This document shows positions 1 through 3,000 of a stretch of 6,702 bases of DNA, piece after piece. The stretch's first letter is position 1, and each line of letters opens with the position of its first letter. The position numbers are program-made. Where the stretch lies: IMG/VR virus record IMGVR_UViG_2529293069_000018, positions 1 to 6,702 of that record. One strand, written 5' to 3'. Source of the stretch: a virus. Taxonomy: Duplodnaviria; Heunggongvirae; Uroviricota; Caudoviricetes.

Positions 1-3000
1 TCGTTTGTGCTGGCAACACCGACGGAGACGGACGGAGCGCTGTTTCCCGGTCGCATTATGCTGGCGAATACCTGTATGTGGACCTACCGCTCTGATGAGT
101 GTGGTTACACGGGCGGGGCAGTGGCGGATGAGTTCGACAACCCCACCACGGATATCCGGAAGGACAGATGCAGCAAGTGCATGCGCGGGTGTGAGATGCG
201 CAGCATGGTGGCTAATTTTGGCGGTTTCCTTTCCATTAATAAACTTTCGCAGTAAATCCCGGTTTATGACACAGACTGAATCAGCGATTCTGGCGCATGC
301 CCGGCGGTGTGCGCCTGCGGAGTCGTGCGGCTTCGTGGTGAGAACGCCGGAGGGGGAGCGGTATATCCCTTGTGTGAATATCTCTGCAGAGCCGGAGGCG
401 TATTTTCGTATTGCACCGGAAGACTGGCTGCGGGCAGAGATGCAGGGGGAGATTGTGGCACTGGTCCACAGTCATCCCGGTGGTCTGCCCTGGCTGAGCG
501 AGGCCGACCGGCGGCTGCAGATAAAAAGTGCACTGTCCTGGTGGCTGGTCTGCCGGGGGGAAATTCATAAATTCCGCTGTGTACCACATCTGACAGGACG
601 GCGCTTTGAGCACGGGGTGACGGACTGTTACACGCTGTTCCGGGATGCCTACCATCTGGCGGGAATTGATATGCCGGATTTTGAGCGTGAGGATGACTGG
701 TGGCGTAACGGTCAGAACCTTTACCTGGACAATATGGCGGTCACCGGCTTTTACCGGGTGCCCCTGTCCTCTGCACAGGCGGGCGATATCCTGCTGTGCT
801 GCTTTGGCGCATCGGTGGCCAATCATGCCGCCATTTACTGCGGCAACGGTGAACTGCTTCACCATCTGCCTGAACAACTGAGTAAACGGGAGAGGTATTC
901 CGAAAAATGGCAACGACGAACGCATTCTGTCTGGCGTCACCGCCACTGGCACGCATCTGCCTTCACGGGGATTTACAACGATTTGGCCGCCGCCTCAGCC
1001 TGTATGTGAACACGGCAGCGGAAGCCATCCGGGCGCTGTCGTTACAGGTGCCGGGCTTTCGCCGTCAGATGAACGAAGGCTGGTACCAGATACGTATTGC
1101 CGGTTATGACACGGCACCGGAGGCGGTGTACGCCCGTCTTCACGAACAGCTGGGTGAGGGAACGGTCATCCACATTGTGCCGCGACTGGCCGGGGCCGGA
1201 AAGGGTGGACTGCAGATTGTGCTGGGGGCGGCAGCCATCGTGGGCTCTTTCTTCACTGCCGGGGCATCAATGGCGTTATGGGGTTCAGCCCTGGCAGCCG
1301 GTGGTTTTTCTGCCACCACGATGCTGTTTTCACTTGGAGCCAGCATGATTCTGGGCGGTGTGGCCCAGATGCTGGCCCCGAAGGCAAAAACACCGGATTA
1401 CCGCGCAACGGATAACGGCAGACAGAACACGTACTTTTCCTCGCTGGATAACATGATTGCCCAGGGGAACCCGATGCCGGTGCCTTACGGGGAAATGCTG
1501 GTTGGCTCCCGCCGTATATCCCAGGACATCAGCACCCGTGATGAAGGCGGGGGCGGAACGGTCGTGGTTGTCGGGCGACAGGGATAAAACATAAAAAAAT
1601 CCCGCAGTGATCGCGGAGCTGCGGGGACAGACAAATGAAGATCAATGTTAAGGAGTTGTTTTTGTTACTCGGGCAAAAAAACACTAACGCAGCGAAATTA
1701 TAAGCGCCACAGTCAGTGTGTGAAAATGTGAAGATATTCAGAATTTTTATGCCATTACCGGTTTTAACCAACAGGATTATCGGTGGGCATGAAAGAAAAC
1801 CCCGGTATCTGCTGATACCGGGGTTTCTCTTTAGCATGGCAGAAATGTGTTTCATGCTTTTCGGGCGAAGGATATCCGACTTCTGTACGGAATGGCAAGT
1901 GGCGGTTAATTTATTCAGGGGAAGGCTGTATGGGAAAAGGTGGCGGCAAGGCGCACACGCCGGTAGAGGCAAAGGACAATCTTAAGTCCACGCAGATGAT
2001 GAGTGTGATTGATGCGATTGGTGAGGGACCGATAGAAGGTCCGGTGAAGGGACTGCAGAGTATTCTGGTGAACAAAACCCCACTGACGGACACGGACGGC
2101 AATCCCGTGATACACGGTGTGACCGCGGTCTGGCGTGCCGGGGAGCAGGAGCAGACACCACCGGAAGGCTTTGAGTCCTCCGGAGCTGAAACCGGACTGG
2201 GCGTGGAAGTGACGAAGGCAAAACCGGTGACGCGCACCATTACGTCCGCGAACATTGACCGCCTGCGGGTTACCTTCGGGGTGCAGTCACTGGTGGAGAC
2301 CACCTCAAAGGGTGACCGTAACCCGGCATCCGTCCGCCTGCTGATTCAGTTACAGCGTAACGGTAACTGGGTGACAGAAAAGGACGTCACCATTAACGGC
2401 AAGACCACCTCACAGTTCCTGGCCTCGGTGATTCTGGATAATCTGCCTCCCCGGCCCTTTAACATCCGGATGGTCAGGGAGACGGCGGACAGCACCACGG
2501 ACCAGCTGCAGAATAAGACGCTGTGGTCGTCATACACCGAAATCATCGATGTGAAACAGTGCTACCCGAACACGGCCATTGTGGGGCTGCAGGTGGATGC
2601 GGAGCAGTTCGGCGGCCAGCAGATGACGGTGAACTACCATATCCGCGGTCGCATCATCCAGGTGCCGTCAAACTATGACCCGGAAAAACGCACGTACAGT
2701 GGTATCTGGGACGGCAGTCTGAAACCGGCATACAGCAACAACCCGGCCTGGTGTCTGTGGGACATGCTGACTCACCCGCGCTACGGCATGGGAAAACGTC
2801 TGGGGGCGGCGGATGTGGACAAGCGGGCGCTGTATGCCATCGGGCAGTACTGCGACCAGACGGTCCCGGATGGTTTCGGGGGGACCGAGCCGCGGATGAC
2901 CTTTAATGCGTACCTGGCACAACAGCGTAAGGCGTGGGACGTTCTCAGTGATTTCTGCTCTGCGATGCGCTGTATGCCGGTATGGAACGGTCAGACGCTG

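Follow-up and report, generated by a model that had tools for sequence, protein, structure and literature searches.

The expanded I-J spacer of a lambda-like tail operon very probably carries the small RNA gene pasB, read against the operon, and an exchangeable 179-bp module

The stretch of DNA analysed here, hereafter the window, comprises 6,702 nucleotides (nt) of a virus of the class Caudoviricetes (IMG/VR record IMGVR_UViG_2529293069_000018, positions 1 to 6,702). It holds a lambda-like tail block that runs from the end of L through K (266-1009), I, J and lom (5473-6072) to the start of stf. Our subject is the spacer between I and J, of which the I-proximal 163 bp is, by its sequence, the small RNA (sRNA) gene pasB, on the minus strand. 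A first-pass annotation had reported a separation of 342 bp between I and J, had put the lambda spacer at about 60 bp, and had described the DNA as AT-richer in an operon whose next two spacers are of lambda size; all of this was borne out by measurement. With I ending at 1587 and J starting at 1930, the I-J spacer (1588-1929) is 342 bp long versus 60 bp in lambda (15445-15504), the J-lom spacer is 66 bp versus 61 bp, and the lom-stf spacer is 64 bp, as is the lom-orf401 spacer of lambda. The GC content is 0.436 in the spacer versus 0.604 in I and 0.573 in J, with values of 0.393 for the pasB cassette and 0.475 for the J-proximal module, which we call J00.

PasB is an 83-nt Hfq-dependent sRNA of prophage PP6 in enteropathogenic Escherichia coli (EPEC) E2348/69, encoded on the minus strand at NC_011601 1466343..1466261 (Pearl Mizrahi et al. 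2021, PMC8550237, Table S6). In that work PasB gave a northern band of the predicted size and was detected by sequencing of ligated interacting RNAs (RIL-seq). Its level fell when hfq was mutated (log2 change of -6.8 and -2.4) and was higher in overnight static lysogeny broth (LB, 'nonactivating') than in exponential Dulbecco's modified Eagle medium (DMEM) (PMC8550237). Both the published northern probe and the published RNA were placed in the spacer (Table 1). The E2348/69 coordinates lie between a tail assembly gene and gpJ, with E2348C_1436 and E2348C_1437 as the neighbours given in Table S6, and in the alignment of the two spacers a single base differs between the I stop codon and about position 1747. 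The two loci share the gene, its strand, its I-J position and the sequence of its promoter and terminator, and differ in the J-proximal half, which is unrelated and measures 179 bp in the window versus about 80 bp in E2348/69. The earlier description of the spacer as non-coding fails on this point, since a published sRNA gene lies there between a minus-strand promoter and terminator. Position 27 of the RNA is where PasB and PasB-2 differ (Zhu, Shabalina and Storz 2026, bioRxiv 10.64898/2026.05.13.724894), and the window allele is probably the PasB-2 of those authors, as judged from that position. Rfam searches with the spacer, at the gathering score and at permissive E-values, returned no family and only weak terminator-like matches.

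A consensus scan found three promoter-like sites in the region versus 0.8 expected, and the only terminator called by the scan within the spacer is a minus-strand one, 1617..1601 followed by U7. The best of the three sites, a near-consensus sigma-70 promoter on the minus strand, faces this terminator, and the same promoter and terminator signals are called in E2348/69 PP6. The terminator ends 5 bp past the I stop codon and its stem is unchanged in 19 of 19 variants, while the -10 element is kept across all families as TATAAT, TATCAT, AATAAT or GATAAT. Transcription is predicted to start 7 nt past the -10, near 1690, and the primary transcript would then be 98 nt long. Within the probable seed, AUCUUC (1642..1637) is invariant between families and UUUGUCUGUC (1635..1626) is family-specific.

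Table 1. Features of the I-J spacer and its borders in the window, followed by the PasB-like genes of E. coli O157:H7 Sakai.
Feature	Position	Strand	Evidence and remarks
Tail assembly gene I	907..1587	+	Open reading frame (ORF); Pfam Lambda_tail_I, E = 2.3e-16; left border of spacer
PasB sRNA, published 83-nt form	1593..1675	-	E2348/69 coordinates mapped by alignment; 82/83 identity; A for C at position 27
PasB intrinsic terminator: CCCGCAG (1625..1619), loop, CUGCGGG (1607..1601), A, U7 (1599..1593)	1593..1625	-	Terminator scan
Published PasB northern probe, AATCCCGCAGTGATCGCGGAGCT	1598..1620	+	Exact, single match; 0 in 200 shuffles; probe antisense to RNA
Unpaired conserved stretch, probable seed, AUCUUCAUUUGUCUGUC	1626..1642	-	Alignment; best pairing with RIL-seq partners
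Predicted 15 extra 5' nt, starting with invariant GCGUUA	1676..1690	-	Promoter geometry and invariant block
pasB promoter: -35 TTCACA (1724..1719), 16-bp spacer, -10 TATAAT (1702..1697)	1697..1724	-	11/12 consensus matches
Invariant block of 29 bp upstream of -35: TGTGA (1727-1731), N6, TCAGA (1738-1742)	1722..1750		Spacer alignment
J-proximal module J00, 179 bp	1751..1929		No Rfam family; unrelated module of 86-110 bp in other phages
Perfect 13-bp palindrome, AAACCCCGGTATC-TGCT-GATACCGGGGTTT	1797..1826		T-rich runs on each strand, as in a bidirectional terminator, which it resembles
Possible relic of the I-gene 3' end, TCATGCTTTTCGGGCGA, compared with TCGTGGTTGTCGGGCGA at 1562-1578	1852..1868	+	14/17 match; equalled in 2/300 shuffles; weak
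Weaker promoter-like site, TTGCCA-18-TATCCT	1869..1898	-	9/12 matches; predicted minus-strand RNA of ~75 nt ending at the palindrome
Tail tip/host specificity gene J	1930..5406	+	ORF; gpJ annotation in homologous loci; right border of spacer
PasB-like genes, Sakai NC_002695.2 (L146-L148)	2902836-2902926 (Sp15), 2676767-2676857 (Sp14), 2166817-2166907 (Sp11)		Match EcOnc22, 23 and 24, respectively, after the coordinate correction

To describe variation at the junction, the I-J spacers of 10 phages, of 119 IMG/VR loci fetched by the invariant upstream block, and of the Sakai copies were compared. Invariant or nearly so in the pasB cassette are the terminator stem with its U-run, AUCUUC, a U-run, GCGUUA, the -10 element and the 29-bp upstream block. 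Between these parts the body of PasB is variable, with insertions and deletions, and forms at least five families; variation between families extends to the sequence immediately 5' of the terminator. Such a pattern of conservation is typical of an sRNA gene. The hairpin formed by the U-run and an A-run at the 5' end of PasB is paired in 93.5% of cells versus 91.4% in shuffles.

Homologues of this RNA appear to have been recorded earlier in enterohaemorrhagic E. coli (EHEC). EcOnc22 (Sp15), EcOnc23 (Sp14) and EcOnc24 (Sp11) are mutually homologous peaks of Hfq in cross-linking and cDNA analysis (CRAC) in EHEC O157:H7 Sakai (Tree et al. 2014, PMC4104026, Table S2), and EcOnc22 runs at about 85 nt on northern blots and is destabilised without Hfq (PMC4104026). 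All three lie inside the 240-bp I-J spacers of Sp15, Sp14 and Sp11 and are antisense to the operon. The coordinates of Tree et al. refer to NC_002695.1 and the copy compared is version 2, for which an offset of +139 to +143 was calibrated on the printed sequence of AgvB1 at 1.94 Mb. With this offset the peaks fall wholly within a 91-nt PasB-like RNA, which has its start block, AUCUUC and terminator in common with PasB of the window. EcOnc22-24 would accordingly be PasB-like RNAs, a link drawn here and dependent on the coordinate correction of about +140. Junction and strand are the same as for PasB; body and seed diverge (CAUCGUUCUCU versus CAUUUGUCUGU), and the targets probably differ. The EcOnc RNAs are mentioned in neither of the two Pas papers (PMC8550237; 10.64898/2026.05.13.724894). 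EcOnc33 and EcOnc54 were also considered as I-J RNAs and were discarded, as neither is at an I-J junction.

Upstream of the pasB promoter, the TGTGA-N6-TCAGA of the invariant block (1727-1742) matches the CRP core consensus at 9 of 10 positions and is a predicted site. The Sakai copies keep both half-sites and their 24-nt distance to the -10, with different N6 and intervening DNA, and conserved half-sites around a changed interior would be typical of the site of a dimeric regulator. CRP-activated promoters carry TGTGA-N6-TCACA centred at the canonical -41.5, -61.5 and so on. The centre of the pasB site lies at about -44.5 from the predicted start versus the canonical -41.5. The level of PasB, higher in static LB than in DMEM, follows a pattern opposite to that of Spot 42 (Spf); it is compatible with control by cAMP-CRP and not specific to it, and we regard such control as a lead, not a finding. 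Recombination between the spacer's two modules also takes place at the 29-bp block, which forms their joint.

Of 5426 complete E. coli genomes, 1446 carry J00, the module on the J side of this joint, with at least 99% identity, as do 1442 records, and J00 is present in 13 phage records. It is found joined to several different PasB families, which points to exchange at the invariant block. Where the first-pass annotation saw a single insert of about 280 bp, the alignments indicate that the spacer is made of two independently reassorting modules, the pasB cassette (1588-1750) and the J-proximal module (1751-1929). The palindrome in J00 folds strongly on either strand, with z = -6.4 for plus and -6.7 for minus, and is not called by the terminator scan, since the neighbouring T-run can lengthen the stem. 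Two terminator hairpins and a promoter had been claimed for the spacer: two hairpins and one strong promoter are indeed there, but the second hairpin is not called by the scan. In one locus (L106, 3990-4121) 47 bp are missing, including the whole palindrome, by a deletion between two short GAAA-containing repeats, and the palindrome is thus dispensable for maintaining the prophage sequence. J00 was also considered as a dispersed repeat or miniature inverted-repeat transposable element, a candidate rejected once the apparent second site of the 178-bp module proved, in every phage, to be only the palindrome matching itself. The only flanking direct repeat detected is the short, weak match between J00 and the 3' end of I (Table 1). 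Were it a relic, the 54 bp immediately before J would represent an ancestral spacer, of lambda-like size.

In most phages the second module is a different one, of 86-110 bp, with a strong plus-strand hairpin and T-run followed by the J ribosome-binding site. This short hairpin is called as a terminator by the scan in E2348/69, and among variants its stem has a compensatory C:G to T:A change; the 60-bp spacer of lambda has an analogous hairpin. In the Stx-phage modules J08 and J02 (L019 and L043 versus L018 and L023) a 7-nt tandem unit, CAGACAT, stands upstream of the J ribosome-binding site in varying copy number, for a length of 96 or 110 nt.

Could J00 encode a second small RNA? The candidates are an RNA of about 75 nt on the minus strand (1862..1788) and a plus-strand RNA with two hairpins (1749-1834), either of which would be compatible with pasB in the other half. 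The promoter-like site with 9 of 12 matches, the U-rich tails on both strands, folds with z of about -6.5 and the near-perfect conservation in 1446 genomes speak for it, as does the best Rfam near-match, on the plus strand at 1749-1831 (E = 0.022, well below the gathering score). However, the z-scores are dominated by the palindrome, which is itself lost in one locus; near-identity yields no covariation and may reflect recent spread; and no mapped Hfq-CRAC peak of Tree et al. falls in such a module. We consider a second RNA possible but unlikely.

The history of the spacer was examined by comparing junctions. The I-J spacer is about 55-60 bp in the lambda group, 71 bp in Gifsy-2 and about 15-50 bp in distant lambdoid prophages. 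Among sampled phage records with I/J flanks about 90% or more identical to those of the window, no empty I-J site was found and all spacers measure at least 235 bp, which argues that the cassette is old in the I/J lineage of the window. A survey of presence and absence gives a divided answer: the cassette is absent from lambda and distant lambdoids, but no sampled close relative has an empty site, and on these comparisons it is an insertion only relative to the former. H165, a candidate for the ancestral state of the junction, was rejected as a decayed prophage with a truncated I gene.

Other cargo occupies the same junction. On contig SFGJ01000116.1 (L012, 137-987), labelled as a Clostridiales metagenome-assembled genome (MAG), I and J alleles about 92% identical enclose a spacer of 851 bp, in which a truncated PasB-like terminator and body without promoter precede a Cu,Zn superoxide dismutase gene that is antisense and has its own hairpin (Pfam Sod_Cu, E = 3.9e-32). 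This prophage sodC resembles pasB in junction, I/J lineage and orientation antisense to the operon, and differs in being a protein gene, one that displaced the pasB promoter and left the truncated 3' part of a PasB-like gene. In prophages of Pseudocitrobacter and Enterobacter (L006 2130-2681 and L008 2072-2668), an operon-strand ORF of 183-198 amino acids (aa) with no Pfam match lies between the I/J homologues. Lambdoid tail operons repeatedly accept cargo at the I-J junction, a standard slot for it.

Counting all families, 1813 of the 5426 complete E. coli genomes contain PasB-like cassettes; these occupy 5544 places, up to 11 per genome, and among the matches listed none carries an annotation at the PasB-like match. 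Being common but unannotated, they cause the spacer to be flagged again and again as anonymous by annotators and scans.

The first-pass annotation had seen in the spacer the organisation of a moron. As in the lambdoid morons lom and bor (Juhala et al. 2000), there is an autonomous promoter and terminator unit between late genes, of deviating GC content, expressed in the prophage, and patchily present, lambda being among the relatives that lack it. The likeness is apt, but the pasB cargo is an RNA and not a protein, and its promoter and the first terminator are antisense to the tail operon. AgvB and AsxR, prophage anti-sRNAs encoded downstream of P_R' and stx, sponge GcvB or FnrS (Tree et al. 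2014, PMC4104026; Rfam RF02702, RF02703). Like PasB they are prophage-borne, Hfq-binding short RNAs of moron sites, with a conserved 3' terminator and variable target-recognition regions; locus and sequence are unrelated. Identity of PasB with either was ruled out, as neither RF02702 nor RF02703 matches at the gathering score or at E up to 10, and their locus is the P_R' moron site.

The RIL-seq data point to where PasB may act. PasB halves of the chimeras map to its 3' 45-55 nt. The dominant partner is a plus-strand RNA of prophage PP2, NC_011601 743482-743611 (L153), with 774 chimeric fragments in three libraries, and the counterpart region in PP5, 1290834-1290972 (L154), contributes 54. The PP2 region lies on the late-operon strand between an esterase gene and a class II holin gene (743713-743919), which places the partner RNA 100-230 nt upstream of the holin gene. 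Both regions contain GACAGACAG, complementary to the proposed seed just before the PasB terminator, and the best-pairing PasB stretch outside the terminator is, for both partners, CUUCAUUUGUCUGUCC with UGACAGACAGUGAC (-15.1 kcal/mol). Its position agrees with that of the seed which Zhu et al. (2026, bioRxiv 10.64898/2026.05.13.724894) place just upstream of the terminator in their proposal. Since this stretch differs between PasB families, the families probably have different targets. The partners suggest possible cross-talk by sRNA from prophage to prophage, concerning lysis genes. The PP2 partner region adjoins pasA, and the PP5 counterpart adjoins pasC. A role as an anti-GcvB sponge, prompted by the CA-rich AACAAAAACAAC, which resembles GcvB R1 targets, is not supported: no PasB-GcvB chimera stands in the lists of sRNA pairs that head the two RIL-seq condition sheets, and the stretch is not conserved across families.

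Taken together, these observations make it very probable that the spacer is expanded because it holds pasB, a self-contained sRNA gene read against the tail operon, to which an exchangeable 179-bp module is joined as part of the same moron-type cargo. In a lysogen, where the late operon is silent, PasB would be made from its own promoter and would act in trans through Hfq, pairing by UUUGUCUGUC just upstream of its terminator. Its dominant partner would be the late-strand RNA upstream of the holin gene in co-resident lambdoid prophages. The palindrome of J00 would probably insulate the pasB promoter and the start of J from read-through in either direction, and the whole spacer would be cargo at a junction that repeatedly accepts it.

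Several observations weigh against this reading. RNAalifold run on the PasB variants supports only the invariant terminator and finds no covariation for any other structure. The promoter predicts 98 nt where the published RNA has 83, and the most upstream RIL-seq reads reach the position equivalent to 1675/1676; the mismatch is due either to processing of the 5' end, to a different start site or to imprecise mapping. Expression was published for the E2348/69 allele, whose J-proximal module differs from that of the window. The offset used for the EcOnc peaks was calibrated at 1.94 Mb only, and uncorrected the peaks would still lie in these spacers and on this strand, but in the J-proximal part. 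Finally, shuffled sequences pair with the partner as well as the seed does in 96 of 1000 cases, and as well as the whole RNA in 23 of 300, so that the pairing alone is not significant.

PasB might also act mainly in cis, a proposal compatible with an autonomous pasB gene, to which we assign a low probability. The late, Q-antiterminated transcript carries a perfect complement of 83-98 nt to PasB, and on induction either PasB would direct cleavage between I and J and alter expression of J, or the late mRNA would titrate PasB and end its effects in trans. In keeping with this, in every case pasB is antisense and sits at this junction (119 loci in IMG/VR, some 5500 places in E. coli genomes), and its chief trans partner is likewise a late-operon RNA, upstream of a holin gene, which points to a link with late gene expression. 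However, the fixed orientation could reflect common descent, and the complementary strand is silent in the lysogen. A broader version, equally improbable in our estimate, makes the I-J junction an antisense regulatory island, in which a catabolite-type regulator bound to the invariant TGTGA-N6-TCAGA block switches PasB, the 179-bp module serves as a second RNA or an insulator, and PasB connects prophages with each other as well as with their own late operon. Were it true, PasB would pair with the RNA upstream of the holin gene and, on induction, be titrated or cleaved by its I-J complement, thereby tuning lysis or the expression of J.

A small protein encoded on the operon strand is very improbable. 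The window has a 22-aa plus-strand ORF at 1635-1703, whose ATG at 1635 follows a GGGGA motif, and in phage PhiR12_4 (L021, 351-449) the spacer bears, at the equivalent position, the annotation of a 32-aa 'hypothetical protein' that lies on the operon strand and is complementary to a PasB-like RNA. But the ATG becomes ACG in the JLK2012, Stx1a_NIID and L003 types, one-base insertions or deletions shift the frame between families, and the length changes from 22 aa here to 31 aa in the Stx family (our translation); the protein is rejected on the loss of the start codon and the frame shifts, and what reads as an ORF is no more than the PasB body's complement. Across the compared spacers no conserved ORF was found on either strand. 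The 32-aa coding sequence of PhiR12_4 is probably a mis-annotation.

Equally improbable is that the spacer is ordinary conserved intergenic DNA, without a gene, whose hairpins set polarity or mRNA stability in the late operon: plus-strand hairpins with a T-run do recur in all intergenic spacers of this part of the operon, namely after J, after lom and in the J-proximal module of E2348/69, and the hairpin in the lambda spacer and the compensatory stem change in the short modules agree with such a role, but this covers the J-proximal part only, whereas the I-proximal 163 bp, with its minus-strand promoter and terminator, matches a validated sRNA gene. In the window the terminator-like hairpins after J and lom lie at 5424-5443 and 6099-6120. 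Late-operon hairpins of this kind on the plus strand are presumably read through by Q-modified polymerase.

The core element is already known, as PasB (2021, 2026), and was first seen as EcOnc22-24 (2014). What is added here is the link between PasB and EcOnc22-24, the anatomy of the promoter and upstream block, the two-module spacer and the I-J junction as a cargo slot; promoter, upstream block and modular spacer are not described in the Pas papers (PMC8550237; 10.64898/2026.05.13.724894). Identification of pasB joins three literatures at one locus, those of the EPEC Pas sRNAs, of the EHEC EcOnc RNAs and of prophage cargo such as sodC.

A scan of genome contigs with protein I gave 12 loci, several of which are E. 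coli contamination in assemblies of unrelated taxa. The E. coli-type lambdoid contigs L003, L005, L007 and L012 stand in assemblies labelled Streptomyces flavalbus, Parendozoicomonas haliclonae, Geobacteraceae MAG and Clostridiales MAG, respectively, labels that most likely reflect contamination or mis-binning.

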